The position numbers and the translations under genes are program-made. DNA of 64,000 nt from contig CANFLQ010000002.1 of NCBI GenBank assembly GCA_947447995.1, positions 14,002 through 78,001 of the forward strand. Reading direction: 5' to 3'. This DNA comes from Bacteroidota bacterium (GTDB lineage: Bacteria > Bacteroidota > Bacteroidia > 2-12-FULL-35-15). The notes beneath the pieces were generated by a model. It was not told where the DNA came from and did not search any database. It saw only the letters and a list, made by a program, of their open reading frames with translations. This document shows, one piece after another, positions 5,579 to 55,965 of this stretch (position 1 is the first letter of the stretch; each line of letters starts with the position of its first letter).

Positions 5579-6751
5579 ATGAAAAAGAGATTTTTTTTAC
5601 TACTTGTATTCACTTTTGGATTTATGTATTGTATTAATGCAGGTATTGTAACTGTAAGGATATTAACTACTACCATTGTAAATACATTTATTTTTTCGCC
5701 ATTAAGTGGTAGTTACAATGTGTATGGCGATGGGGTTTTATTAGCAGATTGTGATCCTTCCGGAATATTTCAAATGAATGTAGAAGGAGATTCTATTTTA
5801 TTAAAAACATTTGAAAAAAATATGGGAAAATTTACAAACATTAAAATATTTGCAAAAGAACCAGCGTCGGCATTTAAAATAAAATCATTAGTACCCAATG
5901 GAAATGTTCGAGCTTATGACGATAATATTGAGATTTTTTTGAGTGCAGATAAAAAGCAATTTTTATTGATTAATAAAGTGGATTTGGAAGATTATATTGC
6001 AGGAGTAGTACAATCTGAAGCAGGAAAAAATACAGGTTTTGAATATTATAAATTGCAAGCTATTTTATGTCGTACTTATTTATTGGCACATCTTGGTCGT
6101 CATATAATGGAAGGTTATGAGGTTTGTGATGATGTCCATTGTCAGGCTTATTTGAGTAGATCAAATGAAGAAATAATTGTAAAATCGGTAGTTGATACTA
6201 AAGGATTAGTTGTAGTAGACAATGATTTAAATTTAATTACGGCTGCTTTTCATTCCAATTGTGGTGGAGAAACCTGCAATTCGCAAGATGTTTGGGCCAT
6301 GCCAACCTCTTATTTAAAATCTGTTAAAGATACTTTTTGTTTGCACAAATCACAGGCGCATTGGCAGCGAGTTATTTCTGTTGAAGATTGGAAATCCTAT
6401 TTACAACTCAAATATAAAAATTCAAATTTCGATACTAATAAAACGGATGAAGGAACAAGTTTTTCTCAAGCGAATGGCAGAGCAATTTATTATACAGATA
6501 AAAATAGTAAGATCCCACTAAAAACTATTCGTGCAGATTTTAAGTTAAAATCTACTTATTTTTCAATTCGGCAAGAAGGAAACTCAATAGTTTTTGATGG
6601 AAAGGGATATGGACATGGAGTAGGATTATGTCAGGAAGGAGCTATGAATATGTGTGGTTTAAAATATACCTATAAGGACGTTCTTCATTACTATTACAAG
6701 GACGTTAACTTGGTTGATCTTTCAGCATTAAATTATTTCAGGCAAGAGTAA
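5579..6751 (+). CDS. SpoIID/LytB domain-containing protein.
   Basis: Signal peptide; region FHSNCGGETCNSQDVW...GHGVGLCQEGAMNM is typical of the SpoIID/LytB amidase-enhancer family. Confidence 0.7.
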   Translation: MKKRFFLLLVFTFGFMYCINAGIVTVRILTTTIVNTFIFSPLSGSYNVYGDGVLLADCDPSGIFQMNVEGDSILLKTFEKNMGKFTNIKIFAKEPASAFKIKSLVPNGNVRAYDDNIEIFLSADKKQFLLINKVDLEDYIAGVVQSEAGKNTGFEYYKLQAILCRTYLLAHLGRHIMEGYEVCDDVHCQAYLSRSNEEIIVKSVVDTKGLVVVDNDLNLITAAFHSNCGGETCNSQDVWAMPTSYLKSVKDTFCLHKSQAHWQRVISVEDWKSYLQLKYKNSNFDTNKTDEGTSFSQANGRAIYYTDKNSKIPLKTIRADFKLKSTYFSIRQEGNSIVFDGKGYGHGVGLCQEGAMNMCGLKYTYKDVLHYYYKDVNLVDLSALNYFRQE

Positions 6752-6794
6752 ATTAGTTTACAGCCTCGTATCTATAACTTTCTTATCTGTATAA

Positions 6795-7730
6795 ATGTTT
6801 CCATTCAAAAAAAAACATTTCCTGCTTTTTATTTTTTGGTTCATTGCAGATCATACAATAACGGCGCAATCCGAATCCTTAGTTTCCGATACAATAAAAA
6901 ATACATTTAGCCAAAAACGCTTAGGAGTGTTAATAACAACCGAAGCCATTCTGTATTCAGGTAGTTTATCTGCATTAAATGAATTATGGTATAAAGATTT
7001 TGCCCATTCCTCTTTCCATTTATTTAATGATAATAATGAGTGGCTACAAATGGATAAAATGGGGCATTGTGTTACATCGTACAGCGTTGGTAAAGTAGGA
7101 ATAGGGTTAATGAAATGGAGTGGGGTAAAGCGTAAAAAAGCAATTTGGTATGGAGGTGTATTGGGCTCCATATTTTTAAATACAGTCGAAATTTTGGATG
7201 GCTTTTCATCCGGATGGGGTTTTTCTATTGGCGATTTATCAGCAAACACAGCAGGTTCATTAATAGTAATAGCACAAGAGTTGGCTTGGGATGAACAACG
7301 AATTGTTTTAAAATATTCGTTCCAACAAAGTGAATATTTTAAATATAATCCTAATTTGTTGGGCAAAAATTTGCAGCAAAATTTAATAAAAGACTATAAC
7401 GGACAAACGTATTGGTTATCGGTAAATTTGTATGCGTTTATGAACCAGCAAACTAAATTTCCTAAATGGCTAAACCTTGCTTTGGGTTATGGTGCAAACG
7501 GAATGGTGGGTGCAAGAACTAACCCTGCAATTATGGATGCAAGCAGTAATACCATTTATTTTGATCGTTACAGACAGTTTTATCTATCATTGGATATAGA
7601 TCTTACCCGAATAAAAACTAAATCAAATTTTTTAAAAACGGTATTCAATACTATTGGATTTATCAAATTTCCAGCTCCTGCATTGGAGTTTAATAAAAAT
7701 GGTGTAAAGGTATTGTTGTTGGGTTTTTAA
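6795..7730 (+). CDS. Hypothetical secreted/periplasmic protein.
   Basis: Signal peptide MFPFKKKHFLLFIFWFIADHTITAQ. 311 aa. No family recognised with confidence. Confidence 0.5.
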   Translation: MFPFKKKHFLLFIFWFIADHTITAQSESLVSDTIKNTFSQKRLGVLITTEAILYSGSLSALNELWYKDFAHSSFHLFNDNNEWLQMDKMGHCVTSYSVGKVGIGLMKWSGVKRKKAIWYGGVLGSIFLNTVEILDGFSSGWGFSIGDLSANTAGSLIVIAQELAWDEQRIVLKYSFQQSEYFKYNPNLLGKNLQQNLIKDYNGQTYWLSVNLYAFMNQQTKFPKWLNLALGYGANGMVGARTNPAIMDASSNTIYFDRYRQFYLSLDIDLTRIKTKSNFLKTVFNTIGFIKFPAPALEFNKNGVKVLLLGF

Positions 7731-7831
7731 GAAATTGAAAGTAATAGTTTAATCTTATTTTTTTCGATTAAATTTTTTTTGTGTTTTTAGATGCGGTGTA
7801 GGACTTAATTTTTACCCCTGCCCAATAAAAA

Positions 7832-7864
7832 GTCCCGTTAAGCATTAAGCTTAACGGGACTTTT
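7832..7864. terminator. Bidirectional intrinsic terminator between convergent genes.
   Basis: Perfect 12-bp inverted repeat GTCCCGTTAAGC/GCTTAACGGGAC with a 5-nt loop. It is flanked by an A-run and a T-run. Confidence 0.7.
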
Positions 7865-7877
7865 ACTACTTTAAAAA

Positions 7878-10415
7878 CTAGTTTTCTTCTTTCTTAGCTT
7901 TACCGTTTTTTGAAGCTTTTGGCTTATTAATCTTTATTTTTATTTCTTGTTTTTCTTTGTCAAAATTAACATCAATTATATCACCTTCAGTTAATGGAGA
8001 ACTTATAATTTCCTCTGCCAATGGATCTTCAAGATATTTTTGAATAGCCCTTTTTAATGGTCTTGCTCCAAATTCAACATCGTATCCTTTGTCCGAAATA
8101 AAATCTTTCGCATCTTCAGAAATTTTAATGGTATACCCTAAACCTTTGATTCTGCCATATAAACTATCCAATTCAATGTCGATAATTTTATGAATATCAT
8201 CACGGGTTAAAGAGTTGAAGATAACTACATCATCAATACGATTTAAAAACTCAGGAGCAAAAGCTTTTTTTAAAGCACTTTCAATAACACCTTTTGTATG
8301 GTCGGTTGCCGTTTCAACCTTAGCTGAAGTTGAAAACCCTACACCTTGCCCAAAGTCTTTTAACTGGCGAGCCCCAATGTTAGAAGTCATGATGATAATG
8401 GTATTTTTAAAATCAATTTTTCTACCTAAACTATCCGTCATTTGTCCATCATCCAATGCTTGTAACAATAAGTTAAATACATCGGGATGTGCTTTTTCTA
8501 TCTCATCTAATAATACAACTGAATAAGGGCGACGACGAACTTTTTCTGTTAATTGCCCACCTTCTTCATATCCAACATAACCTGGAGGCGCACCAATTAA
8601 ACGAGATACAGCAAATTTTTCCATATATTCACTCATGTCAATACGGATTAGCGCATCATCATTATCAAATAAATATTTAGATAATATCTTCGCTAATTGT
8701 GTTTTACCTACACCTGTAGGACCAAGAAATATAAATGAACCAATTGGTTTATTCGGATCTTTTAATCCAGCACGATTACGTTGAATAGCTTTAACAACTT
8801 TTTTAACAGCATCATCCTGACCAATAACCTTACCTTGCAAAAGTTCAGCCATTTTAATCAACTTATTACCTTCGTTTTGTGCTATACGTTGAACGGGTAC
8901 ACCTGTCATCATCGCTACAACTTCAGCAACATTGTCTTCAGTAACTACCTCGCGATGCGTTTTGCTTTCCTCTTCCCATAATTTTTTAGCAGTTTCAAGC
9001 TGTTCTAAAAGTTGACGTTCTGTGTCGCGCAATCTGGCAGCTTCTTCATATTTTTGAGAACGAACAACTTTGTTCTTTTCCTCTTTAATTTCTTCCAGTT
9101 TTTTCTCAATTTCCAAAATATTTTTTGGAACATTAATGTTGATGATGTGAACACGAGAACCAGCTTCATCTAAAGCGTCAATAGCTTTATCAGGCAAATG
9201 ACGATCAGAAATGTAACGCGCTGTTAAGGTTACGCACGCTTTAATAGCTTCATCCGTATAGGTTACATTGTGATGATCTTCGTACTTCGCTTTGATATTG
9301 TTTAAAATCTCAATAGTTTCTTCTGTTGAAGTAGGCTCTATGATTACTTTTTGGAAACGTCTTTCCAAAGCACCATCTTTTTCAATATATTGACGGTATT
9401 CATCTAAAGTTGTCGCACCAATACATTGTATCTCGCCACGAGCTAGAGCTGGTTTAAACATGTTGGATGCATCTAATGAGCCTGAAGCACCACCAGCACC
9501 AATAATAGTATGAATCTCATCGATAAACAAAATTACGTCAGGAGATTTTTCCAATTCGTTCATCACCGCTTTCATACGCTCTTCAAATTGTCCGCGGTAT
9601 TTAGTACCGGCAACTAAAGAGGCTAAATCTAACGTAACAACACGTTTACCAAACAATACGCGAGAAACTTTGCGTTGAACAATACGTAGCGCTAACCCCT
9701 CTGCAATAGCTGATTTACCTACACCTGGTTCACCAATTAGCATTGGATTGTTTTTCTTTCTACGTGATAATATTTGAGAAACGCGTTCAATTTCTTTTTC
9801 GCGTCCAACAATAGGATCTAATTTTCCATCTTCGGCAGCTTTGGTCAAATCTCTTCCAAAGTTATCCAATACAGGGGTTTTTGATTTACTATCAGTAACT
9901 TTTTTAGTGCTGCTGGCACTAAATTGATCATCATCCCCTTCATCTTCAGGAGGATTCCCGGGCATTTCAGCTCTTGGTTCCGATTTAGATACTTCAAATT
10001 CTCTTTTCATAGTTTCGTAATCAATTTTAAATTTTTGTAATGATTTTGTAGCAACATTGTCTTCATCTTTTAAAATAGATAAAATTAAATGTTCGGTACC
10101 AATAATAGCACTTTTAAATAATTTGGCTTCCAAATAGGTTATTTTTAAAGCTCTTTCAGCTTGTTTCATTAAAGGGATATTTGCCAAGTTACTCACCTTG
10201 TGATTTCCTGTTCCTATTGCTTGCTCAATTATTTTGCGTAATTCCTGTAGGTCAACGTGTAAGGATTTAAGCAAACGAACCGCAGTTCCTTCGCCTTCGC
10301 GGATAATTCCTAACAATAAATGTTCGGTTCCTATATAGTCGTGCCCCAACCGTAAAGCCTCTTCGCGACTGTAGGTAATCACATCCTTAACTCTGGGTGA
10401 AAATTTAGCTTCCAT
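7878..10415 (-). CDS. clpC: ATP-dependent Clp protease ATP-binding subunit ClpC (Hsp100 AAA+ family).
   Basis: Double Clp_N repeat, two Walker A sites ([16 protein letters not shown]), a short middle region carrying a UVR-like motif ([16 protein letters not shown]) and [12 protein letters not shown]. 845 aa. Confidence 0.9.
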
Positions 10416-43965: not shown

Positions 43966-45321
43966 TTAAACGGTTGAACTAAAAATACTTGTAAGTGGTG
44001 CATTGCGAGATAACTTAGCATCAAATGCCATACAAATATTACGAATGAACGGGCGGGCAGAATCTTTCACTTTTAAATGAAGATGAGTAAGTTCTATAAG
44101 TTGATCCTTTTCCATTTCTATTAATCGGTTAAGCGCCTCATTAATCCAAGCCAATTTTTCAGTGGGTTTATCCCATGAAGTCTGGAATTTACACATAATA
44201 TTTAAAATGTGTTTCCTTACAATTAAATCTTCTTCGTTTAGCAAATGACCTTTAAAAATTGGAATTTGTCCCTTATCAATTAAGGCGTAATACTCTTCTA
44301 CCTTTTTTACATTTTGGGCATAAGCATACCAAGTATCACTTATTGAAGATACTCCTAAGCCAATCATTAATTGAGTATAACTATGTGTATACCCCATAAA
44401 ATTTCGATGCAATTTTCCATTCTCAGCTGCTTTAAAAAGCGAATCGGATTTCAAAGAAAAATGATCCATCCCAATTTCGACATAACCATTCTGCGAAAAT
44501 AAATCCTTGCCAATTTCATATAAAGCACGTTTTTCTTCATCAACCGGCAAATCGTTTTCGGTAAATTTCCGTTGTCCGGGTTTTACCCATGGAATATGTG
44601 CATAGCTATAAAAAGCTATCCTATCAGGCTTAAGCAAATTTACTTTATTGATGGTATCTACTACGCTATTGCGAGTTTGAAGCGGTAAGCCATAAATCAA
44701 ATCGAAATTGATAGAAGTATAACCAATTTTTCTAGCTGCATCTACGACTCTTTCAACACTTTCAAAAGGCTGTATCCTATTCACAATTGCCTGCACTTTT
44801 GGGTCAAAATCCTGAATTCCTAAACTCAATCTTCTAAATCCTAATTGATATAAAGTTTCTAAATGAGCATTACTAGTATTATTGGGATGGGCTTCAAAAC
44901 TAAATTCAGCATCATCACATACCACAGCTTTAGAAGTGATACCCTCGATCAATTGTTTTAAATGAATTGGAGAAAAAAAGGTAGGCGTGCCTCCACCTAA
45001 ATGAAGTTCTTTTATCTTTGGTTTTTCACCAAACACTTCCAAATACAAATCCCACTCTTTTAACAAAGCAGTAATGTAGGGTGTTTCAACAGCATGATTC
45101 ACTGTAATGCGCGTATTGCAACCGCAGTAAGTACATAAACTTTCGCAGAATGGAAGATGAATATAAATTGAAATACCATCCGTTGCATTGGTTTCTATAA
45201 ATGATTGTTTAATACTTGCTGTCCATTGATTAATTGTTGGTGGTATTTCATTCCAATACGGCACAGTGGGATAACTCGTATATCGTGGACCTGCAACATT
45301 GTATTTTTGAATTAAACTCAT
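43966..45321 (-). CDS. hemN: Oxygen-independent coproporphyrinogen III oxidase (radical SAM HemN).
   Basis: HLPFCESLCTYCGCN (Cx3Cx2CxC). The 451-aa size fits HemN rather than HemW. Confidence 0.9.
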   Translation of the reverse strand: MSLIQKYNVAGPRYTSYPTVPYWNEIPPTINQWTASIKQSFIETNATDGISIYIHLPFCESLCTYCGCNTRITVNHAVETPYITALLKEWDLYLEVFGEKPKIKELHLGGGTPTFFSPIHLKQLIEGITSKAVVCDDAEFSFEAHPNNTSNAHLETLYQLGFRRLSLGIQDFDPKVQAIVNRIQPFESVERVVDAARKIGYTSINFDLIYGLPLQTRNSVVDTINKVNLLKPDRIAFYSYAHIPWVKPGQRKFTENDLPVDEEKRALYEIGKDLFSQNGYVEIGMDHFSLKSDSLFKAAENGKLHRNFMGYTHSYTQLMIGLGVSSISDTWYAYAQNVKKVEEYYALIDKGQIPIFKGHLLNEEDLIVRKHILNIMCKFQTSWDKPTEKLAWINEALNRLIEMEKDQLIELTHLHLKVKDSARPFIRNICMAFDAKLSRNAPLTSIFSSTV

Positions 45322-45369
45322 CTAATATTTATTATTTTCACTTTAAATAAAACAAACTATTTGTTTGAT

Positions 45370-45819
45370 TTACAATAAATTATCTTCACAAAACCATTCA
45401 GCATACGATGTTTCCGTTTCCTGCAATTTTAAACGATTCAACTCAATATCCTTTGGCAATTGCATTTTTATTTGTTGAGCTATATCTATCAACATATTTT
45501 CACAGGTAGGTTGATAATTCACTAAAACCAATTTGCTAAATAAGATGTTTCCTTCCGCTAATTTTTTGTGGGGCGATTTTGCATTCAGAATGGTAGCATG
45601 ATCCAATTGTTCTATAATAGGTTTAACAATAGCTTTTATCTCATTAAAATCCATCACCATACCTTGTTTTACATGTTTTGGATCCTTAATTGGCTGACCT
45701 TTTACTGTAACAGATAAACAATAAGAATGTCCGTGTATGTTTTTACATGGACCGTCATATCCTGAAAGCGCATGTGCCATTTCAAAATGAAATTCTTTTG
45801 TAATCCTAACATTATTCAT
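45370..45819 (-). CDS. queD: 6-carboxytetrahydropterin synthase / PTPS family (QueD-like).
   Basis: FHFEMAHAL...CKNIHGHSY (C-x3-HGH zinc motif). Confidence 0.75.
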   Translation of the reverse strand: MNNVRITKEFHFEMAHALSGYDGPCKNIHGHSYCLSVTVKGQPIKDPKHVKQGMVMDFNEIKAIVKPIIEQLDHATILNAKSPHKKLAEGNILFSKLVLVNYQPTCENMLIDIAQQIKMQLPKDIELNRLKLQETETSYAEWFCEDNLL

Positions 45820-45850
45820 AGCATTGATTTTTATAATTATTTTTTACAAA

Positions 45851-46579
45851 TCATTTATGACAACACTTGTGAACCATTGGTTTTACAGTCGACATTTCTG
45901 GACTCACATAAGGTATACCTAAATTCATACCTCTTAAAATCAATAACAAAGCTGTAGTTACAATAAATATAGGCATGGCTTTATTAACCCTACTTCTAAA
46001 TTTTAAACTAATGGCATTACCAAACACCGACAATACGAACATAGCAGGTAAAGTTCCGAAACCAAACATAGCCATGAACAAAACCCCATCTAAACTATTT
46101 CCAGTGGCAATGGCACCTGCAATGCCTAAATAAACCAATCCGCAAGGCAATAAACCATTTAAAATACCAATAGAAAACAAAGTACTCATGTTTCGTTTTT
46201 TGAACAACATACTCAAGGATTGTTTTAATTTTCCAATGCCTGAATAAATAAAGCCTGTAATCTTATATCCACTAAAAACACTGTTCGGCAATAATACCAT
46301 CAGCAATATAGCTACCCCTAAAACAATGGAAGTAAGTTGCTGATAGCCAGCAATAACTACGCTTTGCCCTACCAACCCAAAAAAGCCTCCCAAAATACCG
46401 TAAGTGAACATTCGTCCGAAATTGTATATTAGTATTCCGCTGATTTTTGTGAATGCTGATTCCTGATTTAACGGTAAAGCCAAGGCTATTGGTCCGCACA
46501 TTCCAACACAGTGGAAGCTACCAATAAAACCTAACGTTATTGCCGTTAAAATAATATTCATTGTATTATGGTATAACAA
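45851..46579 (-). CDS. TauE/SafE (DsbD_2-like) family membrane protein of the cbb3 cluster.
   Basis: Polytopic membrane protein with GSFHCVGMCGPIALAL. Overlaps fixH by 14 bp. Confidence 0.7.
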   Translation of the reverse strand: MLYHNTMNIILTAITLGFIGSFHCVGMCGPIALALPLNQESAFTKISGILIYNFGRMFTYGILGGFFGLVGQSVVIAGYQQLTSIVLGVAILLMVLLPNSVFSGYKITGFIYSGIGKLKQSLSMLFKKRNMSTLFSIGILNGLLPCGLVYLGIAGAIATGNSLDGVLFMAMFGFGTLPAMFVLSVFGNAISLKFRSRVNKAMPIFIVTTALLLILRGMNLGIPYVSPEMSTVKPMVHKCCHK

Positions 46580-47012
46580 TTACCTCTTCTGAAAAATATT
46601 TTTTTTCAGTGACTGTCCAGTTGATTTGTAATTTATACATTCCTTTATATAAATTGTTTAAAGCAATGATTTTCTGTGTATTATTATTCAAATTAATGGT
46701 CGATTTAAAATCTTTAGATTTATCGGAAGGTCTAAAAAAATAGATTTCTCCTTGCACTTTTTGACCTTTAAACAGACTAGGAAATTGCAACTGAATTTCC
46801 GATGCTGAAATTGTGTGGGTGATTTTTTCGGATAAGGCATTGGCATTATTCATTTCATTTATCTTATCCTGAAATGCAAGTTCTCGTTCATAATAATCGT
46901 CGCTTACCAAATCAACTTGCTGATTAACACAAACATATACCATAACACCTATCATTAATACGAATGAACTATACAATACGGCAATTTTTGTACCCCAGCT
47001 TATGTTTATCAT
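46566..47012 (-). CDS. FixH/CcoH-family protein.
   Basis: Single N-terminal TM segment plus a periplasmic domain. Sits between ccoG and the TauE-like gene, as in cbb3 assembly clusters. Confidence 0.65.
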   Translation of the reverse strand: MINISWGTKIAVLYSSFVLMIGVMVYVCVNQQVDLVSDDYYERELAFQDKINEMNNANALSEKITHTISASEIQLQFPSLFKGQKVQGEIYFFRPSDKSKDFKSTINLNNNTQKIIALNNLYKGMYKLQINWTVTEKKYFSEEVIVIP

Positions 47013-47045
47013 AACTACAACATTTAATATTAAAACTCCTTATTC

Positions 47046-48467
47046 CTATTTTTTGGGGACCACACCTAAAAAATTGGTTTGAACGGTTTCTATTTTTTTT
47101 CCTTTAGTATACACCCCAATAGTCAGTTTTGTTTTTCTGTTTTTTATATCCTTTTTATTCAGGATGATAAAAAACTCGCCGCTTGCTACGTTTTCTTTTC
47201 CTACTTGAATTACATTTCTACCAATCATTTTAATTTTACCGGAACCAGATTCTAGGGTGAGAACTATAGGTAAATCTTTTCTTGTTTTATTTACCAGTTT
47301 AATGTTATATAAATTACTTAAACAATTATCAGGTTGTTCTTGATATAACATTCCTGGAGTCCTTAAAATACTGGTTTCCACATCTGTTCTGCTTACCAAT
47401 ACGGTTATCAAAACTCCAATTAATAAAGTAAGAACTATTGAATATGAAATAATACGGGGCGTAATTTTTAATTTTGTTTTGTTGGCAATACCATTCTCCG
47501 AATCGTAACGTATCAATCCTTTCTTTTTACCAACACTTTCCATCATGTGGTCACAAACATCGATACAAGCGGTGCAATTAACACACTCCAACTGAGTACC
47601 GTTGCGGATATCGATTCCTGTAGGACAAACTTTTACACATTGAAAACAATCGATACAATCCCCTTTTGTTACTTCTTGTTTTTTTGAATATTTTGCTCTT
47701 GGCTCACCACGTAGATAATCGTAGGCAACCAAAATTGAATTTTTATCCAACAAAACACCTTGTAATCTACCATAAGGACAAACAACTATACAAGCCTGTT
47801 CTCTGAACCAATAAAAAACGCCAAAAAATATCCCGGTAAAAATCAATAAGGAAATTAAAGTACTGATATTGTTAGCGATAGGTTCAACTATCATTTTTTC
47901 TAATTCATCAATACCTATAATATATGCTAAAAAGGTATTTGCCACCGCAAATGAAACGGCAAAAAATACGGCAATTTTTGAACCTCTTTTTCTTATTTTT
48001 TCAGCATTCCAAGGTAATTTATCTAATGCTTTTTGGTGAGTCGCATCTCCCTCTATCCAATATTCAATTTTACGGAATACCATTTCCATTAATACTGTTT
48101 GAGGACAAGCCCAACCGCAAAACACCCTACCAAATACAACCGTAAAAAGAACGATAAACACAATAAATGTTAGCATCCCCAACACAAATAAGAACAAATC
48201 CTGAGGCCAAAACACCACGCCAAACAAAATAAATTTTCGTTCAATCAGGTTGAGCAAAAAAGGAGGCTCACCGTGTATTTTCATAAACGGTAAGAAAAAA
48301 AATATGGCTAAGTAAACAATACTTAATACCGTTCTTTTATTATACAGCTTTCCTTTTGGCTTTTGCGCAAATATCCAAACTCGTTTTCCGTCTTTTACGG
48401 TTGCTATCGTATCACGAAACGATCCACTCTCCAACTCTCCATCTTTTTCCATAAAACTATTTTGCAA
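47046..48467 (-). CDS. ccoG: cbb3 oxidase accessory protein CcoG/FixG (4Fe-4S ferredoxin-type).
   Basis: TM segments plus CIDCFQCVKVCPTGIDIRNG...CVNCTACIDVCD, a double ferredoxin Cys motif. Confidence 0.85.
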   Translation of the reverse strand: MQNSFMEKDGELESGSFRDTIATVKDGKRVWIFAQKPKGKLYNKRTVLSIVYLAIFFFLPFMKIHGEPPFLLNLIERKFILFGVVFWPQDLFLFVLGMLTFIVFIVLFTVVFGRVFCGWACPQTVLMEMVFRKIEYWIEGDATHQKALDKLPWNAEKIRKRGSKIAVFFAVSFAVANTFLAYIIGIDELEKMIVEPIANNISTLISLLIFTGIFFGVFYWFREQACIVVCPYGRLQGVLLDKNSILVAYDYLRGEPRAKYSKKQEVTKGDCIDCFQCVKVCPTGIDIRNGTQLECVNCTACIDVCDHMMESVGKKKGLIRYDSENGIANKTKLKITPRIISYSIVLTLLIGVLITVLVSRTDVETSILRTPGMLYQEQPDNCLSNLYNIKLVNKTRKDLPIVLTLESGSGKIKMIGRNVIQVGKENVASGEFFIILNKKDIKNRKTKLTIGVYTKGKKIETVQTNFLGVVPKK

Positions 48468-49641
48468 CCACCTTTAAGCTATCCACCATTGGAGCAATGG
48501 CGGTACTATCTGTTTTTAATGAATCTGAAACAATTGCAGATTCAGAATAAAGTTCACCTTGAGGAGCTTTTGCGTTAACCGGATTGCTTCCTTTCAACGT
48601 TTTAATATAAGAAGCCAGTTGATGAATTTGTACAGGAGAAAAATCGGCCTGCCATGCTTTCATCCCCTTATCGGACCAACCATATTTAATTGAAGTAAAT
48701 ACATCTTTTATACTTCCTCCGTGCAACCAATACTCATCCGTTAAATTAGGACCTACTCCACCTTCGCCTAATTTACCATGGCAAGCAAAACAATTTTCTT
48801 TATAAATTGCCTCACCTTTAGTAATTTCGGCTTGGTCGGTTAACATGGTTACTGAATTTTCATTCACATTGTTAGCATTCTTTTTTTGATATTCTTCCTT
48901 TGCAATAGAGGCTGCAACAATTGATCTGTTGTATTCATCGGCTTGTAACATTTCTTTGCCAATAACATGATGGTCTAATAAATAAACAACTGCAAAAACA
49001 ATGGTCAAATAAAATCCATATTTCCACCACGGTGGCAAATCATTATCCAACTCTCTGATACCATCATAATTATGATCAAGCATAATATCACTTTCTTTTT
49101 CTATTGCAACTGAGGCGTTCATTATTTCAAAAAATGAAGGTTCCTCAACCTTTATTTCAATTTCTTTTTTGGTAAATAACTTAATACAACTTATAAGGAT
49201 GCCAATAATTAAAACTTCAAAACCAATCAGTAACAACATTAAATAAAGCAATCCGTCAGGCAAGTTTATACTATTTGTAACAGTATTTGAATCAACTGTT
49301 TGTGAAAATAATTGCTGCCCCGAAGAAACAAATATTATAAATGCTATTACCCCTATCATTTTACCGGAATTATCTTTACTTTTTTCATTTCCAATAGCGG
49401 CAACATTTTTTAATACACCTCCTAAAACAGCTATTACAATTATCAACATAACAATAACACCTAACAACACATTAAATAATGGAATTGAAAAAAGTGACAA
49501 TGAATTAATCGTTTCAACTGTTTCAGAGTTTTGAGCCATAGAACTATAACCAATCAAGATTGCTAATCCTGTTAATACATATTTAGAATAATCTCTTTTA
49601 AATGACTCTAAACGTGGAAATATATTTTTTTTCATATTCAT
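48457..49641 (-). CDS. ccoP: cbb3-type cytochrome c oxidase subunit CcoP (FixP).
   Basis: N-terminal membrane region and a C-terminal cytochrome c domain with CFACHG. Overlaps ccoG by 11 bp. Confidence 0.8.
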   Translation of the reverse strand: MNMKKNIFPRLESFKRDYSKYVLTGLAILIGYSSMAQNSETVETINSLSLFSIPLFNVLLGVIVMLIIVIAVLGGVLKNVAAIGNEKSKDNSGKMIGVIAFIIFVSSGQQLFSQTVDSNTVTNSINLPDGLLYLMLLLIGFEVLIIGILISCIKLFTKKEIEIKVEEPSFFEIMNASVAIEKESDIMLDHNYDGIRELDNDLPPWWKYGFYLTIVFAVVYLLDHHVIGKEMLQADEYNRSIVAASIAKEEYQKKNANNVNENSVTMLTDQAEITKGEAIYKENCFACHGKLGEGGVGPNLTDEYWLHGGSIKDVFTSIKYGWSDKGMKAWQADFSPVQIHQLASYIKTLKGSNPVNAKAPQGELYSESAIVSDSLKTDSTAIAPMVDSLKVVAK

Positions 49642-49726
49642 ATAATTTATATTTTTTATTGCCCATCTTGATCCGTCAGACTTTTCAATTTTATAATACT
49701 AACTCAAAAAACGGACAGACAACTGA

Positions 49727-49885
49727 TTAGTTAAGAGGAATGTTCTTCATTTCTGCAATTTTCTCCTTTTTTACCGTAACTGCCCATAAAATAAGTACAA
49801 GGAAGAAAACAAAGAAGATACCTAAAGAAATCATCGGATAGATTGATATCCCTGATATTGTTTCCAAATAATGTTTAAATTTCAT
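49727..49885 (-). CDS. ccoQ: Small membrane protein, CcoQ-like (52 aa). Below the ORF-track cutoff.
   Basis: The reverse-complement ORF reads MKFKHYLETISGISIYPMISLGIFFVFFLVLILWAVTVKKEKIAEMKNIPLN. Its stop is 12 bp after the ccoNO stop. Confidence 0.5.
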   Translation of the reverse strand: MKFKHYLETISGISIYPMISLGIFFVFFLVLILWAVTVKKEKIAEMKNIPLN

Positions 49886-49896
49886 ATCTATATATT

Positions 49897-52029
49897 TTAT
49901 TTTTTAGTAGTAAAAACTTGATTATTCGCTTTAATGTCTTTTCCTAATCGTTGTAAATAAGCTATTACCGCAATAATTTCTTTGTCGCTAGTAGTTTCTA
50001 TTCCATCTTTTTTTAGTCCGGCAGTTATCAAATCGGCTTGAACCATTAATGCTTTATTTGCAATTTTATCATACCCTTGCGGATAAGGAACACCTAATGT
50101 TATCATTGCTCTAATTTTAGGAGCTGTGCTAGATGTATCTAAATTATCATCCAACATGAATTGATATGCAGGCATAATGGAACCAGGCGACATAGTACTT
50201 GGATCTAACATGTGATTGTAATGCCATGAATCGGGATATTTTCCACCTTCTCGTGCTAAATCGGGACCGGTGCGTTTTGAACCCCACAAAAACGGATGGT
50301 CATATACAAACTCCCCTGCTTTAGAATATTCGCCATAACGCTCTGTATCAAAACGTAATGGGCGAATCATTTGAGAATGACAAGTTGAGCAACCCTCACG
50401 GATATAAATATCACGCCCTTGTAACTCGAGCGGTGTATATGGTTTTACACTTGCAATAGTCGGGATATTTGATTTTATCATAAAGGTTGGAATCATTTCA
50501 ATAGCTCCTCCTATCAAAACAACAACTAAACTAAATACCATCAATTGGATAGGTTTACGTTCAATCCAACGGTGCCAGTGTTCTCCTTCATGGCTACCTT
50601 CTATTTTTGAAAGAGCGGGAGCTTGTGCATCTTCATTTTCCAATAAATTACCTTGTTTAATTGTTTTTATCATATTGTAAATCATGATGATAAAGCCAAA
50701 TAAATACATGGCTCCACCGATTGATCTCATAATATACATCGATCTAAGCTGAGTTACTGTTTCAAGAAAATTTGGATATTTTAAGAAACCCTCAGGAGTA
50801 AATTGTTGCCACATAAAGTATTGGGTAAAACCCGCCCAATATAAAGGAATTGCATAAAACAAAATACCTAATGAACCCAACCAAAAATGCCAGTTGGCTA
50901 ATTTTTTAGAATATAAATCTGTTTGATAAATTCTTGGAATCAACCAATATAAGATACCAAAAGTTAAGAAGCCGTTCCAACCTAAAGCACCAATATGAAC
51001 GTGAGCTACTATCCAATCTGTAAAGTGAGCAATGGCATTTACTTTTTTCAATGAAAGCATAGGACCTTCAAAAGTTGCCATACCATAAGCTGTGATAGCT
51101 ACCACCATAAATTTCAACACAACACTTTCACGTACCTTATCCCATGCCCCTCTAAGTGTTAATAAGCCATTAATCATCCCACCCCAAGATGGGGCAATCA
51201 ACATGATTGAAAATACAACACCTAATGATTGAGCCCAATCTGGTAATGCAGTATATAATAAATGGTGAGGACCAGCCCAAATGTATAGAAATATTAGAGC
51301 CCAAAAATGGATAATGGATAACCTGTATGAATAAACCGGACGTTCGGCAGCTTTAGGAATAAAATAATACATCAAACCTAAATAAGGGGTTGTTAAGAAA
51401 AACGCCACCGCATTGTGCCCATACCACCATTGCACCAATGCATCCTGAACACCGGCATATACAGGGTAACTTTTAAAAAGTGATACAGGGATTTCAACAG
51501 AATTAACAACATGAAGAACTGTAACGGTTACAAATGTTGCAATGTAAAACCAAATAGCTACATATAAATGACGCTCTCTTCGTTTTAAAATAGTTCCAAA
51601 CATATTCCAACCGAATATCAACCAAGTTATAGCAATAGCAACATCTATTGGCCATTCTAACTCGGCATATTCTTTACCTGTAGTTAAACCCAGAGGTAAA
51701 GAAAGCGCACCGGCAATAATTATTAACTGCCATAACCAAAAGTGAACTTTGCTTAAAGTGTCGTTATACATACGTGCTTTACACAAACGCTGAAGGGAAT
51801 AATAAACTCCCATAAAAATACCATTCCCAACAAATGCGAAAGCTACGGCATTGGTATGTACGGGACGAATACGACCGAAGGAAGCTATAGGAATAAAATT
51901 TAAAGCAGGGAAAATCAATTCTAATGCAATGTATAAACCAACGGTCATCCCTGCCAAGCCCCAAATAATTGTAGCAATTGCAAACTGTTTAACAATTTTG
52001 TTGTCGTACGAAAACTTTTCTAATTCCAT
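49897..52029 (-). CDS. ccoN: cbb3-type cytochrome c oxidase, fused subunits CcoN and CcoO.
   Basis: Heme-copper oxidase subunit I membrane domain with His ligands. C-terminal mono-haem CcoO domain with CSTCH. 710 aa. Confidence 0.95.
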   Translation of the reverse strand: MELEKFSYDNKIVKQFAIATIIWGLAGMTVGLYIALELIFPALNFIPIASFGRIRPVHTNAVAFAFVGNGIFMGVYYSLQRLCKARMYNDTLSKVHFWLWQLIIIAGALSLPLGLTTGKEYAELEWPIDVAIAITWLIFGWNMFGTILKRRERHLYVAIWFYIATFVTVTVLHVVNSVEIPVSLFKSYPVYAGVQDALVQWWYGHNAVAFFLTTPYLGLMYYFIPKAAERPVYSYRLSIIHFWALIFLYIWAGPHHLLYTALPDWAQSLGVVFSIMLIAPSWGGMINGLLTLRGAWDKVRESVVLKFMVVAITAYGMATFEGPMLSLKKVNAIAHFTDWIVAHVHIGALGWNGFLTFGILYWLIPRIYQTDLYSKKLANWHFWLGSLGILFYAIPLYWAGFTQYFMWQQFTPEGFLKYPNFLETVTQLRSMYIMRSIGGAMYLFGFIIMIYNMIKTIKQGNLLENEDAQAPALSKIEGSHEGEHWHRWIERKPIQLMVFSLVVVLIGGAIEMIPTFMIKSNIPTIASVKPYTPLELQGRDIYIREGCSTCHSQMIRPLRFDTERYGEYSKAGEFVYDHPFLWGSKRTGPDLAREGGKYPDSWHYNHMLDPSTMSPGSIMPAYQFMLDDNLDTSSTAPKIRAMITLGVPYPQGYDKIANKALMVQADLITAGLKKDGIETTSDKEIIAVIAYLQRLGKDIKANNQVFTTKK

Positions 52030-52080
52030 AAGGTTTTACTATTTGAGATTTTTGATTTACTTTTTACCCTTTTACTTATC

Positions 52081-52239
52081 TTATTTTTTCTTTTTCACCA
52101 CTTCATCATCAAATAACATACGAACCGATGGCGTATAATCATCATCGAATTGCCCATTTTTAACACTCCAAATAAATGCTATCAAAAAACCTAAGGCGGT
52201 TATAACACTGGCTCCTATAAGTACAAACAATACGCTCAT
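52081..52239 (-). CDS. ccoS: CcoS/FixS-like cbb3 maturation protein (52 aa). Below the ORF-track cutoff.
   Basis: The reverse-complement ORF reads MSVLFVLIGASVITALGFLIAFIWSVKNGQFDDDYTPSVRMLFDDEVVKKKK. The FDD motif is typical of CcoS. Confidence 0.65.
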   Translation of the reverse strand: MSVLFVLIGASVITALGFLIAFIWSVKNGQFDDDYTPSVRMLFDDEVVKKKK

Positions 52240-52296
52240 TGAGTAGGGTTATTAAAATTTCGCAACAAAGTTATTGGTCAGGTTGGGGATAATTTA

Positions 52297-52333
52297 TGAC
52301 GCTCGTCAGTTTAAGAATATGATACAAATCATA
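52297..52333. promoter_or_regulatory. Two Crp/FNR-like palindromes in the ccoS-ccoNO / histidine-kinase divergent region: TGACG-ct-CGTCA and TATGAT-acaa-ATCATA.
   Basis: Read directly from sequence at 52297-52308 and 52318-52333. A candidate -7 box for the minus strand (CAAAGTTA, i.e. TAACTTTG) is at 52266-52273. Confidence 0.45.
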
Positions 52334-52440
52334 CTTTTTTAAAACAGTTCGGGCTATTTTTACTTTTCATATAATTTTATATCGAGCTATTTATTAACTT
52401 TAAGCCAGCAAATTTTAATTTTAAAAGGGAAACCAGTAAA

Positions 52441-53673
52441 ATGAATAGCAAAGAGGGGTTTCAGGCATTATTTGAGTTTGCAACAGAAGGCATTATTGTT
52501 TCAGATTCTAAAGGAGTAATTATTAAAGTAAACCCTGCTGCCGAAAAATTATTTGGTTATGAACATAATGAGTTAATTGGCAAAACAATTGAAACTCTTA
52601 TTCCTCAAAAATTTGCTCATCATCATAAAGGCATCCGCGAAAATTATTTAAAGCACCCAAAACCTAGATCCATGGGCTTAGGGATGGATCTTTTTGCCAA
52701 AAGAAAAGATGATTCTGAGTTTCAAGTTGAAATTAGCCTAAGTTCTTTTGATACCAGTGAAGGGAAATTTGCAATTGCTTTTATTATTGATATTACCGTT
52801 AGAAAACAACAAGGTGATATTTTAAAGAAAACCAATAACGATTTACATGAGCTTTCAGAAAAATTAAAAAATGCAAATCTTGAACTAGAAAAACGAGTTG
52901 AAGACAGAACACTTATGCTGCGTGAAGCCATTTTTGAATTAGAACAAAACAAAAAAGAAATAAGCATCGCTTTGGCTAAGGAAAAGGAACTAAATGATTT
53001 AAAGAGCAGATTTGTTTCTATGGCATCCCATGAATTTCGTACACCTTTGAGTACAATATTATCCTCTGTTGCACTTATTGCAAAATACAATACAGAGGAA
53101 ACGGAAGATAAACGACAAAAACACATTACTCGAGTAAAGTCCTCTGTAAACCATTTAACCGAGATTCTTAACGACTTATTATCATTAAGCAAACTAGAAG
53201 AAGGTATGTTGATTTGTAATCCTGTTGTATTTGACATAGTTGATTTTTCAAAAGATATTGTTCAGGATATGCAAGCGCTTTCAAAAGAAGGACAAACAAT
53301 TGTTTATGAGCATATTGGAGATGATAAAATAGTGAATTTAGATATTAAATTCTTGAAAAATATTTTTATCAATTTATTATCCAATGCCATTAAATTTTCA
53401 CCTGAATATCATCAAATTGATTTAAAAACTGAAACCTCAAAAAATGAAATAACAATAACAATAAAAGATTCAGGAATAGGAATTGAAAAAGAAGATCAAA
53501 AAAGGTTATTTGAACGCTTTTTCCGCGGACAAAATGCAACAAACATTCAAGGAACCGGATTGGGATTAAACATTGTTACCAAATATATTGAAATGATGAA
53601 AGGAACAATTGGTTTTGAAAGTGAAGTTGGAAAAGGAACAACCTTTATTATTAAACTTCCATTAATTGGTTAA
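52441..53673 (+). CDS. PAS-domain sensor histidine kinase; the PAS domain is FixL-like and possibly haem-binding.
   Basis: N-terminal PAS, coiled-coil, HisKA motif SHEFRTPL, and HATPase_c (N box NLLSNAIKFS, G boxes DSGIGI and GTGLGL). The stretch IPQKFAHHHKGIRENY...GLGMDLFAKRKDDSEF aligns without gaps to the FixL haem-PAS proximal-His region as I recall it. Confidence 0.85.
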   Translation: MNSKEGFQALFEFATEGIIVSDSKGVIIKVNPAAEKLFGYEHNELIGKTIETLIPQKFAHHHKGIRENYLKHPKPRSMGLGMDLFAKRKDDSEFQVEISLSSFDTSEGKFAIAFIIDITVRKQQGDILKKTNNDLHELSEKLKNANLELEKRVEDRTLMLREAIFELEQNKKEISIALAKEKELNDLKSRFVSMASHEFRTPLSTILSSVALIAKYNTEETEDKRQKHITRVKSSVNHLTEILNDLLSLSKLEEGMLICNPVVFDIVDFSKDIVQDMQALSKEGQTIVYEHIGDDKIVNLDIKFLKNIFINLLSNAIKFSPEYHQIDLKTETSKNEITITIKDSGIGIEKEDQKRLFERFFRGQNATNIQGTGLGLNIVTKYIEMMKGTIGFESEVGKGTTFIIKLPLIG

Positions 53674-53684
53674 CTATTTATACG

Positions 53685-54743
53685 ATGAAAACAATTTTAC
53701 TGATAGAAGATAATCCCGAAATGCGTGAGAATACAATGGAAATTCTTGAGCTGGACAAATACAAAGTAATTCCCGCAAAAAATGGTAAAGAAGGTGTTGA
53801 ATTAGCACAAAACAATAAAGTTGATTTGATAATTTGTGATATTATGATGCCTTTGTTGGATGGTTATGGTGTTTTGCATTTATTAAGTAAAAATCCTGAA
53901 ACCGCAAGTATACCTTTCATTTTTTTAACGGCAAAATCGGAGCGAATGGATTTTAGAAAAGGAATGGAAATGGGAGCCGATGACTATATCACCAAACCTT
54001 TTGATGATATGGAATTACTGAATGCTGTTGAAAGCAGAATCAAAAAAAGTGAATTATTACGTTCTGAGTTTTCCAAAAATCAGGAAGGATTCGATAATTT
54101 TTTCACAGAGATTAAAAACCTGAGCGACTTTGGTAAATTATCAAATGCAAGAACCAACCGAATTTTTAAGAAAAAACAAATAATTTTTACTGAAGGTAGT
54201 TATCCAAACGGTTTATATTTTATAAATAAAGGTAAAGTAAAAACTTTTAAAACAAATACTGATGGAAAAGAGCTAATTACCGGGTTATTTAAAGACGGTG
54301 ATTTTATTGGGTATCATGCTTTATTGGAAGAAAGTGTTTATAACGAATCTGCTGCAGCATTAGAAGAAACTGAAACCTGTTTAGTATCTAAAGACGATTT
54401 TTTTATCCTTATTTATAAAAATAATGAAGTATCAAAAAAATTCATTCAAATGCTTTCCGATAATATCGTTGAAAAAGAAAAAGCGTTATTAAATTTAGCT
54501 TATAATTCGGTACGAAAACGAGTTGCCGAAGCCTTAATGGAATTAAAATTAAAATACCATAATGAAGGTGAAAAACAATTTAGTATGCCGATTTTGCGCG
54601 AAGATTTAGCGAACATGGCAGGTACTTCGCAAGAAACAACCATTAGAACACTTGCCGATTTTAAAGACGAAAAACTAATAGATATAAATGGCGGAACAAT
54701 TACATTGTTAAATGTTGAAAAACTAAAAAAGTTGAAGAATTAA
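53685..54743 (+). CDS. Hybrid response regulator: receiver (REC) domain fused to a Crp/FNR-type cNMP-binding domain and HTH.
   Basis: REC domain (LLIEDN...DLIICDIMMP...LTAK, phosphoacceptor Asp). Effector-domain-like beta-roll (IFTEGSYPNGLYFINKGKVK). C-terminal HTH_Crp (ILREDLANMAGTSQETTIRTL). Confidence 0.85.
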   Translation: MKTILLIEDNPEMRENTMEILELDKYKVIPAKNGKEGVELAQNNKVDLIICDIMMPLLDGYGVLHLLSKNPETASIPFIFLTAKSERMDFRKGMEMGADDYITKPFDDMELLNAVESRIKKSELLRSEFSKNQEGFDNFFTEIKNLSDFGKLSNARTNRIFKKKQIIFTEGSYPNGLYFINKGKVKTFKTNTDGKELITGLFKDGDFIGYHALLEESVYNESAAALEETETCLVSKDDFFILIYKNNEVSKKFIQMLSDNIVEKEKALLNLAYNSVRKRVAEALMELKLKYHNEGEKQFSMPILREDLANMAGTSQETTIRTLADFKDEKLIDINGGTITLLNVEKLKKLKN

Positions 54744-54745
54744 CT

Positions 54746-54789
54746 ATACCAAAATTAATCTTGAAACGAATCAAGATTAATTTTGGTAT
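54746..54789. terminator. Bidirectional terminator between the convergent response-regulator and desaturase genes.
   Basis: Perfect 19-bp arms ATACCAAAATTAATCTTGA / TCAAGATTAATTTTGGTAT with a 6-nt loop. Confidence 0.75.
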
Positions 54790-54799
54790 TAAAATGTAT

Positions 54800-55864
54800 T
54801 TATTGTCCTACTTGTTTCAAATGAACTACGTGTGAACGTATTGCACTAAGTACCGTTGGAAATTCCATGTAGTTTACTCCGAATTGCTCGCAGGTTTCTT
54901 TAACTAACTGACTAATATTAGGATAATGAACGTGGCTAATACGAGGAAATAAATGGTGTTCCACCTGAAAATTTAAACCACCTGTAAACCATGAAACAAT
55001 TTTATTTTTTGTAGCAAAATCCGCCGTTGTTTCTATTTGATGAACAGCCCACTCATTTTCAATTTGATAAATATTTGTGTCAGGTAAATGAAAAGACGCC
55101 TCTTCAACAACGTGTGCCAATTGAAAAACAACAGAAATAACAAACCCCGTAACAAAAGATATTACAACATAGCCAATCAAGGTTTCCTTTATACCAATTA
55201 CATATATTGGGAGTGTTATAAATACAGCTATATATAAAACCTTACTAATCCAAAAAACAAAATGATCGGTTAATTCCATTTTTTTGAATTTATTATCACC
55301 AATTTTTCCGGAAAAATATTTTTGAAAATCCTGAACATAAACCCATAATAAATAAGTTGTACAGTATAATGGTATCCAATAAACATGTTGAAACTGGTGA
55401 TACCAATGTTTTTTTTGGTTTTCGTTTACACGAATCCAAGGCTTTATATCAATATCTTCATCCATACCTTCAATGTTAGTATACGAATGATGAAAAACAT
55501 TGTGTTTCGCTTTCCACAAAAACGCGTTACCTCCCATCGCATTTAAAGAAAATGCCATCAACTCGTTTACCCAAGGTTTTTGAGAAAAACTACCATGAGC
55601 ACCATCGTGCATTGTATTAAAACCTATGGCTGCAAGGTTTAACCCCATCAAACAACATACTAAAATAGATAGCCAAAGTGACGGCGTAAAAAAGACCAAA
55701 ACAACATAAAAAGTAATGGCCGATAACAGAAGGAGAATTGTTTTTATATATAATTTAAAATTCCCCGTTTCTCTAATATTATTAGACTTAAAATAGGTGT
55801 CAACCTTTTGTTTTAATGTTTCAAAAAACACGCTATCCTTATTATTGAAAATTACTTTTTGCAT
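54800..55864 (-). CDS. Membrane fatty-acid desaturase (acyl-lipid/CoA desaturase family).
   Basis: Three His boxes (HDGAHGS, HNVFHH, HHLFP), 4 TM segments, 354 aa. Confidence 0.85.
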   Translation of the reverse strand: MQKVIFNNKDSVFFETLKQKVDTYFKSNNIRETGNFKLYIKTILLLLSAITFYVVLVFFTPSLWLSILVCCLMGLNLAAIGFNTMHDGAHGSFSQKPWVNELMAFSLNAMGGNAFLWKAKHNVFHHSYTNIEGMDEDIDIKPWIRVNENQKKHWYHQFQHVYWIPLYCTTYLLWVYVQDFQKYFSGKIGDNKFKKMELTDHFVFWISKVLYIAVFITLPIYVIGIKETLIGYVVISFVTGFVISVVFQLAHVVEEASFHLPDTNIYQIENEWAVHQIETTADFATKNKIVSWFTGGLNFQVEHHLFPRISHVHYPNISQLVKETCEQFGVNYMEFPTVLSAIRSHVVHLKQVGQ

Positions 55865-55902: not shown

Positions 55903-55965
55903 AAAAAGTGCGAATCATAGTTTTTTATAAATGCGAAAATGTGACTTAAATCATATTGTATAGAA

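Follow-up and report, generated by a model that had tools for sequence, protein, structure and literature searches.

We analysed a 64-kb stretch of DNA (the window; all positions are numbered from its first letter) from contig CANFLQ010000002.1 of a Bacteroidota bacterium, whose sequence matches contigs of metagenome-assembled genomes (MAGs) of freshwater Bacteroidota. Our subject is a pair of genes encoding a PAS-domain histidine kinase and a response regulator in which a receiver (REC) domain is fused to a Crp/FNR-type module. The pair lies head-to-head with a block running from ccoS through ccoNO, ccoP, ccoG and fixH to hemN, with which it shares a 201-bp intergenic region. Judging from sequence comparisons, it probably switches on these low-oxygen respiration genes. 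Checking the open reading frames (ORFs) placed both genes, and the gap of 11 nt between them, exactly where a first-pass annotation of the window had put them. The genes and their key residues are as follows.

52441-53673, plus strand: kinase of 410 aa, with PAS, HisKA and HATPase_c domains (Pfam)
52624-52626, plus strand: kinase His62, in the PAS domain (approximately aa 1-120), which is followed by a coiled coil, HisKA and HATPase_c
52672-52674, plus strand: kinase Met78
52684-52686, plus strand: kinase Met82
53029-53031, plus strand: kinase His197
53685-54743, plus strand: fusion response regulator of 352 aa, with Response_reg, cNMP_binding and HTH_Crp_2 domains (Pfam)
53838-53840, plus strand: regulator phospho-acceptor Asp52, in a REC pocket with Asp9, Thr82 and Lys104

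The kinase carries a single PAS domain (Pfam PAS, PAS_9 and PAS_4, spanning aa 7-122), followed by HisKA (aa 188-255) and HATPase_c (aa 301-408). Its phospho-acceptor His197 lies within the motif SHEFRTP, and the N and G boxes of the catalytic domain are intact. The maximum Kyte-Doolittle score is 1.25, which leaves no transmembrane segment, and the protein is therefore predicted to be cytoplasmic. When residues 1-130 were compared with all PDB sequences using phmmer, the top 14 matches were all haem-PAS domains (E-values from 2.7e-14 to 7e-11), and the next match followed at 7.5e-4. These matches include RmFixL (1d06, 2.7e-14), 10jx (2.8e-12), DosP (7e-12), BjFixL (9e-12) and EcDOS (2e-11). 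The alignment to RmFixL runs without gaps over residues 9-119 and puts His62 at the proximal His, in keeping with the ungapped match to the FixL haem pocket that the first-pass annotation had described. With a profile built from 33 homologues, FG214 (10jx) came top at 1e-18, ahead of DosP (5e-17) and RmFixL (8e-17). An AlphaFold2 (AF2) model of the domain (pLDDT 89) gave a similar picture in Foldseek, where FixL 8js5 (E=4.9e-12, TM 0.84), FG214 10jx, 1d06 and EcDOS 1vb6 were listed in that order and LOV domains came afterwards. Sequence, profile and fold searches thus all rank haem-PAS proteins first, as had been anticipated for this kinase. Identity to the solved haem-PAS domains is 22-30%, and the homology argues strongly that this PAS domain binds haem.

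The residues around the predicted haem pocket suggest a particular kind of pocket. His62, the third His of an HHH run, aligns with FG214 His156, RmFixL His194 and BjFixL His200, and a His at this proximal position is found in 62 of 72 partner kinases. Five residues are invariant in the 33 homologues (His62, Pro73, Arg76, Met78 and Gly79); Met82 is present in 28 of the 33, and many orthologous kinases have Arg or Lys at position 82. Arg76 aligns with BjFixL His214, Met78 with FG214 Met172 and Gly81 with FG214 His175. For the FG214 haem-PAS domain (entry 10jx), a 2026 preprint shows His156 as the proximal ligand, His175 as the distal ligand of ferric haem and Met172 as a haem ligand in the dithionite-reduced crystal (10.64898/2026.03.15.711900). 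The window kinase has both the proximal His and the FG-loop Met (RxMG) that mark the FG214 and DosP pockets, each of them invariant; a counterpart of the FG214 distal His175 was not found, the aligned residue being Gly81. On these alignments the pocket looks more like the FG214/DosP kind than the FixL kind, and Met78, rather than only Met82, becomes the better-conserved candidate for the distal ligand.

The regulator has the domain architecture that the first-pass annotation expected, namely Response_reg at aa 4-116 (E=1.7e-28), cNMP_binding at aa 160-243 (PF00027, 3e-19) and HTH_Crp_2 at aa 278-350 (PF13545, 1.6e-17). The phosphorylation-site residues D9, D52, T82 and K104 of the receiver are invariant across 44 homologues. 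The C-terminal 220 aa form a normal Crp/FNR module, whose PDB matches include 2gau (1.9e-21), Thermus 4ev0 (1e-19), FNR (1e-16), CRP (1e-14) and CooA (5e-8). There is no FNR-type Cys cluster, again as annotated: the only two Cys of the protein are C51, in the receiver, and C232. The residues through which CRP contacts cyclic AMP (cAMP; Glu72, Arg82 and Ser83) are not conserved either. Tyr210 stands in place of Glu72, and Arg82 falls on the acidic residue of a conserved Y-x-[ED]-S-A motif, the alignment being approximate around a gap there. In the recognition helix, ETTIR is found in place of FNR ETISR, such that E317 and R321 correspond to FNR E209 and R213, and Ile320 replaces FNR Ser212. In an AF2 model of the whole regulator (pLDDT 73, pTM 0.38) the individual domains are confident, including a long helix at 247-291 (the C-helix) that leads into the helix-turn-helix (HTH), and the linker of about 30 aa (124-155) and the domain orientation are of low confidence.

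Such fusions are not rare; indeed, they form a very large family. In an exhaustive HMMER search of 1.84 billion representatives (clusters at 50% identity), 1,928 clusters matched the fusion at E<=1e-30. The best 150 of these 1,928 matched in a single stretch, with identity down to 35%; nearly all are full length (about 340-380 aa) and approximately eight are shorter and apparently truncated. More than 120 full-length relatives share at least 65% identity with the window protein. Their database names are generic, such as 'response regulator' or 'CRP-like cAMP-binding protein/CheY-like'.

The block that diverges from the pair comprises the following genes, all on the strand opposite to it.

52081-52239, minus strand: ccoS (FixS/TIGR00847), first gene of the predicted target operon
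49897-52029, minus strand: fused ccoNO (NF011053, 1284 bits; COX1 + FixO)
49727-49885, minus strand: 52-aa ORF in a CcoQ-like position between ccoNO and ccoP, conserved elsewhere by tblastn
48457-49641, minus strand: ccoP (FixP_N + Cytochrome_CBB3)
47046-48467, minus strand: ccoG (TIGR02745, 409 bits)
46566-47012, minus strand: fixH (Pfam PF05751)
45851-46579, minus strand: DsbD_2-family membrane protein (Pfam PF13386)
45370-45819, minus strand: QueD-like 6-pyruvoyl-tetrahydropterin-synthase (PTPS) gene (Pfam PF01242; TIGR03367, 90.3 bits against a cut-off of 89.25)
43966-45321, minus strand: hemN, oxygen-independent coproporphyrinogen III oxidase (TIGR00538, 439 bits against a cut-off of 325; Radical_SAM), last gene of the same-strand cluster

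Pfam and NCBIfam assignments agree with the earlier labels for ccoS, ccoNO, ccoP, ccoG, fixH, the QueD-like gene and hemN. The gene labelled tauE, by contrast, scores as DsbD_2 and the label was dropped. The ccoQ label stands in part: the 52-aa ORF is kept at 43-69% identity in about 20 other loci, it returned zero Pfam or NCBIfam family matches, and it probably encodes a CcoQ-like small subunit. The cluster at 43966-52239 contains ccoS, ccoG and fixH and lacks the copper P-type ATPase gene ccoI/fixI, and ccoN and ccoO are merged into a single protein of 710 aa. The QueD-like gene also adjoins hemN at several of the other loci described below (L001, L012 and L059 among them), and in L001 queD-hemN is itself divergent from the kinase-regulator pair.

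The association between the pair and these genes extends well beyond the window. A relative of the regulator is encoded in 595 stretches of one-genome-per-species contigs, and we examined the best 80, at 21 kb per genome. Almost all are labelled Bacteroidota (Chitinophagales, Cytophagales, Sphingobacteriales, Flavobacteriales and Saprospirales), the others being one labelled uncultured bacterium and one whose Bifidobacterium label is evidently wrong. L040 is a MAG with the label Chitinophaga pinensis, and L015 a MAG with the label Chryseobacterium gleum. In 76 of the 80, the gene immediately upstream of the regulator encodes a kinase homologue. The genes ccoNO/ccoG or hemN occur within the fetched flank in 39 of the 80 loci, and in 23 of the 42 loci that have at least 9 kb on both sides; with a cluster size of about 8 kb and genomes of 4-6 Mb, less than 1% would be expected by chance. 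The linkage to cco/hemN on which the first-pass annotation had staked its reading is thus found elsewhere. The cco genes may lie upstream on the same strand, downstream on the opposite strand, or divergently, and because gene order differs in this way between loci, the linkage appears to have been kept through rearrangements. A second Crp-type gene was found neither in the 64-kb window nor within 10 kb in 79 of the 80 loci.

Most of the partner kinases have a PAS domain of the window type, a few having other PAS sets or being REC-HisKA kinases. In six loci (L021, L030, L036, L039, L054 and L080), a kinase with a genuine FixL-type PAS domain stands beside the same fusion regulator. That of L054 matches the RmFixL haem domain at 4.2e-33, the IIGxGREV distal-Arg loop included, with about 55% identity as judged by eye over the printed alignment. 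In four loci from Adhaeribacter and Pontibacter (L018, L020, L048 and L055; positions ~6700-10000), the adjacent kinase is REC-HisKA-HATPase without a PAS domain and a second histidine kinase is encoded about 1 kb upstream, a layout that suggests a phosphorelay variant of the same circuit.

The intergenic region shared by the two operons holds two palindromic boxes and, on either side of them, a predicted promoter.

52297-52308, unstranded: Box A, TGACGCTCGTCA, centred at -41.5 for the ccoS promoter and at about -64.5 for the kinase promoter
52320-52331, unstranded: Box B, TGATACAAATCA, centred at about -64.5 for ccoS and at -41.5 for the putative kinase promoter
52266-52273, minus strand: sigma-A -7 box TAACTTTG of the ccoS promoter, matching TAnnTTTG, 23 nt downstream of Box A (a distance shared with 14 other loci), with a predicted start near 52261
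52355-52362, plus strand: putative -7 box TATTTTTA of the kinase-regulator operon, 23 nt after Box B, with a predicted start near 52367

The boxes are 23 bp apart and are the sole tandem pair in the 64 kb, each being promoter-proximal for one operon and distal for the other. It is because they are conserved in other genomes that these palindromes are significant. Within 300 bp upstream of ccoS, enumerated in 30 loci, TGAT-N4-ATCA occurs in 12 and TGAC-N4-GTCA in five (0.2 expected for each). Their common core, TGA-N6-TCA, occurs in 28 of the 30 (shuffles gave a mean of 2.7 and a maximum of 9), upstream of hemN in 8 of 12 loci (1.1 expected) and upstream of the kinase gene in 35 of 62 (5.5 expected). 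The intergenic palindromes picked out earlier therefore belong to a conserved family of the form TGAY-N4-RTCA, which usually comes as a tandem pair. The spacing of consecutive boxes is 22 bp for 19 of the 28 intervals ahead of ccoS and for 15 ahead of the kinase gene; the double use of the window boxes by two operons may explain why their spacing is 23 bp instead.

The position of the boxes relative to the promoter is equally rigid. In 34 of 37 pairs, exactly 23 nt (15 cases) or exactly 45 nt (19 cases) separate the box end from TAnnTTTG, the remaining three lying elsewhere, and on the kinase side of other loci the box to -7 distances cluster at 22-24 and 44-47 nt. A centre at -41.5 is the class II position for Crp/FNR activators. 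Since the Bacteroidota -7 box spans -12 to -5 (PMC9723704), boxes 23 and 45 nt upstream of it are centred at -41.5 and -63.5. The distal box is the nearer to consensus (ACMTGAY-N4-ATCATAT) and the proximal box is often degenerate, a pattern that suggests cooperative loading. The base that flanks the core is A or C, as opposed to T in the FNR box, and we infer that this preference goes with the exchange of FNR Ser212 for Ile320.

Comparative genomics usually connects a box to its regulator through autoregulatory sites. Among 28 loci without cco/hemN nearby, 15 have boxes of this family ahead of the kinase operon (shuffles gave a mean of 2.7 and a maximum of 9), and the upstream regions of the kinase and ccoS genes are the same DNA in this window only. 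These boxes have the signature of autoregulation and would tie the box to the fusion regulator. The canonical FNR/FixK box, TTGA-N6-TCAA, was considered and set aside: it has only two matches in the window, no more than chance, and the one close to the pair, at 54761-54774, sits at the apex of a terminator hairpin, where it might be taken wrongly for an FNR box. A scan for E. coli-type sigma-70 promoters was uninformative for a Bacteroidota genome, and the TAnnTTTG -7 box was used instead.

Taken together, we hold with moderate confidence that the pair is a two-component low-oxygen (or redox) switch for the cbb3 oxidase and HemN regulon. The cytoplasmic kinase would carry one haem b in its PAS domain, with His62 as the proximal ligand and Met78 and Met82 of the FG loop as candidate sixth ligands. 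A fall in O2, or reduction of the haem, would lead the kinase to autophosphorylate on His197, from where the phosphoryl group would pass to Asp52 of the adjacent regulator. The latter would act as a Crp/FNR-type activator in which an N-terminal receiver replaces the usual input (the FNR iron-sulphur (Fe-S) cluster, or cAMP), and its phosphorylation would bring about receiver-driven dimerisation, the role played in FNR by Fe-S-dependent dimerisation. Two dimers could then bind cooperatively to the tandem TGAY-N4-RTCA boxes at -63.5 and -41.5, with the regulator at -41.5 activating sigma-A RNA polymerase in class II fashion. The targets would be ccoS-ccoNO-(Q)-P-G-fixH-...-hemN and, through the same two boxes in the opposite direction, the pair's own operon, such that one protein would cover the jobs of both FixJ and FixK. 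In Flavobacterium psychrophilum, the cbb3 operon and hemN are strongly induced together when O2 is limiting, and no regulator was named (PMC9723704); at the level of expression, the proposed circuit agrees with this hypoxic co-induction.

A close counterpart among known systems is the rhizobial cascade, in which FixL acts on FixJ (REC-LuxR), FixJ on the Crp/FNR-type FixK, and FixK on fixNOQP, fixGHIS and hemN. The window circuit has in common with FixL-FixJ-FixK of rhizobia and Caulobacter the haem-PAS histidine kinase as sensor (here by homology), the Crp/FNR-type final activator (here proposed), the targets (here predicted: cbb3 oxidase, its assembly genes and hemN) and the box core TGA-N6-TCA, and some Bacteroidota loci even use the kinase that is about 55% identical to the RmFixL haem domain. 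However, FixJ joins its receiver to a LuxR/GerE domain, whereas here the receiver is joined to cNMP_binding and HTH_Crp_2; receiver and Crp module form one polypeptide in place of a separate fixK tier, giving one tier and not two; and the window kinase, unlike FixL, has no distal Arg, a single PAS domain and no membrane anchor. Because the regulator is not a FixJ, there is no fixK gene and the PAS domain lacks the FixL distal arginines, the pair is not a member of the FixLJ-FixK system. The first-pass description of a compressed FixLJ-FixK circuit is nevertheless supported computationally by the domains, the haem-PAS homology, the gene linkage, the boxes and the six loci with FixL-type partners. 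In the hFixL-FxkR-FixK circuit, FxkR, an OmpR-type regulator, induces a separate fixK gene, whereas no intermediate gene would be needed here. For this circuit in Rhizobium etli and R. leguminosarum, PMC7888657 indicates that a regulator of a different class can take the place of FixJ in oxygen control.

Each half of the pair also has relatives outside the Fix systems. The C-terminal 220 aa of the regulator are homologous to FNR (E. coli; Aliivibrio fischeri 5cvr; E=1e-16) and keep the E and R of the recognition helix, and the predicted site at -41.5, like the kind of regulon, is that of class II FNR promoters. FNR differs in having a Cys cluster and Fe-S extension where the fusion has a receiver, and in its preference for the outer T of TTGAT. 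By profile, the PAS domain of FG214 from Fimbriimonas ginsengisoli is the closest one with a solved structure (1e-18) and has the motif H-x3-R-x2-Y-x3-P-x2-R-x-M-G in common with the window kinase, but FG214 is a one-component HTH-PAS protein with a distal His175 (Gly81 in the kinase). DosP/EcDOS differs in that it controls a cyclic di-GMP phosphodiesterase, and neither FG214 nor DosP works as a histidine kinase alongside a Crp-type regulator. The Crp/FNR scaffold of the fusion also serves as a gas- or redox-responsive activator in CooA and other haem- or ligand-sensing members of that family; CooA, however, holds haem in its own beta-barrel domain, whereas here sensing would reside in a separate kinase and be relayed through phosphorylation. 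Each domain of the pair is thus an ordinary member of a known family, and it is their combination and role that are not described in the papers found. No account of a REC-Crp regulator controlling cbb3 turned up in the papers searched, although the architecture may be listed in response-regulator censuses, and the CRP/FNR meta-regulon paper PMC8510549 does not cover the fusion. The fusion architecture itself is abundant in databases.

Several observations weigh against the proposed low-oxygen switch. The distal Arg that marks FixL (BjFixL Arg220) is replaced by Met82, and BjFixL Arg206 by Asn68, the same Met and Asn substitutions that the first-pass annotation had read from the sequence. With these O2-readout residues replaced, it is not certain that the kinase senses O2 as FixL does; a haem held by both His and Met, and thus hexacoordinate, may instead respond to redox state or to a different gas. 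Neither TGAT-N4-ATCA nor TGAC-N4-GTCA exceeds chance when only the window is considered, and TATTTTTA has one mismatch to TAnnTTTG. About half of the full-flank loci have no cco/hemN within 10 kb, and because the loci come from related genomes picked by regulator similarity, they cannot be counted as independent cases. The boxes could also be bound by a Crp/FNR paralogue encoded at an unlinked place in the genome, and the AF2 model of the regulator is silent on how the receiver would control the Crp module.

These points lend themselves to other explanations, one of which keeps the wiring and changes the signal. A hexacoordinate haem, held by His62 and by Met78 or Met82, would report redox, CO or NO by ligand displacement, as in DosP, RcoM and FG214, and not O2 occupancy as in FixL. 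The best profile match is indeed FG214, in which the redox state decides between His-His and His-Met ligation of the haem; Met78 is invariant and aligned with FG214 Met172, and the FixL distal Arg is missing. Yet a high-affinity oxidase together with the O2-independent HemN is what classically responds to low O2, position 82 is Arg or Lys in many orthologous kinases, a true FixL-type PAS accompanies the same regulator in six loci, and DosP, with the same His/Met chemistry, is itself an O2 sensor. We consider this explanation rather unlikely. We give even less credence to a PAS domain without haem, which would bind another ligand or serve as a mere dimerisation module while the kinase answers some other signal, although the link to cco/hemN would stand in that case too. 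PAS domains readily change cofactors, this one has only 22-30% identity to solved haem-PAS domains, and LOV domains are close behind in the Foldseek list. Such a view must nevertheless contend with the sharp E-value gap between haem-PAS domains and all other PAS domains and with the invariance of His62, Arg76 and Met78 at haem-ligand and propionate positions; moreover, the LOV flavin-binding Cys motif is absent, residue 259 being the sole Cys of the kinase.

The remaining alternative separates the boxes from the pair. Another, unlinked Crp/FNR protein (for example a classical Fe-S FNR) would read the boxes and the pair would control something else, its proximity to cco being coincidental or a matter of loose co-regulation. 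A Bacteroidota genome usually has several Crp/FNR paralogues, many sites of this family share TGA-N6-TCA as a generic core, and the loci cover only 21 kb per genome. On the other side, about half of the loci show the pair linked to cco/hemN, in several gene orders, the same boxes precede its own operon even where no cco genes are nearby, no other Crp-type gene lies close by, and the A/C that flanks the core in place of FNR's T would fit Ile320 where FNR has Ser212. We regard this separation as very improbable, and we favour the pair itself as the low-oxygen (or redox) switch that reads the boxes.

Beyond the regulator gene, the window continues with the following features.

54746-54789, unstranded: perfect 19-bp hairpin between the convergent regulator and desaturase genes (-22.8 kcal/mol, z = -8.3; terminator scan)
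54800-55864, minus strand: fatty-acid desaturase gene (PF00487)

The hairpin looks like a bidirectional terminator that closes the two-gene kinase-regulator operon. A single good box, gTGACTTAAATCAtatt, lies at 55942-55953, 78 bp upstream of the desaturase gene and 44 nt before a -7 box, TATCTTTG. As desaturases need O2, this gene may be an extra member of the regulon; we left it out, on account of the single box, the 44-nt spacing and the fact that it is not a conserved neighbour in other loci. Further downstream in the same organism (L081, 10483-13052) come genes for an iron-dependent repressor of the DtxR type, which has a FeoA domain, and then for an Nramp-Usp fusion transporter, a metal-uptake pair within a few kb of the oxygen circuit.

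To conclude, the REC-Crp/FNR fusions would constitute a functionally uncharacterised major class of response regulators. We put it at about an even chance that this holds and that, paired with a haem-PAS kinase, they act as the master switch for hypoxia in aerobic Bacteroidota, in place of both FNR and FixLJ-FixK; phosphorylation would drive two dimers to bind cooperatively at -63.5 and -41.5 of sigma-A promoters that have only a -7 box. If the proposed circuit is true, the FNR scaffold would have been kept while its oxygen-labile Fe-S input was swapped for a receiver fed by a haem sensor, and the two-tier FixLJ-FixK cascade would have become a single step. Thanks to the rigid promoter geometry, class II activation with the unusual sigma-A of Bacteroidota could readily be studied here, and the tandem boxes with the 23-nt rule would allow the hypoxia regulon to be predicted from the sequence of Bacteroidota genomes and MAGs. 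For the hypoxic induction of cbb3 and HemN in aerobic Bacteroidota (Flavobacteriia, Chitinophagia, Cytophagia and Sphingobacteriia), the pair is a specific and testable candidate regulator, conserved across these groups.

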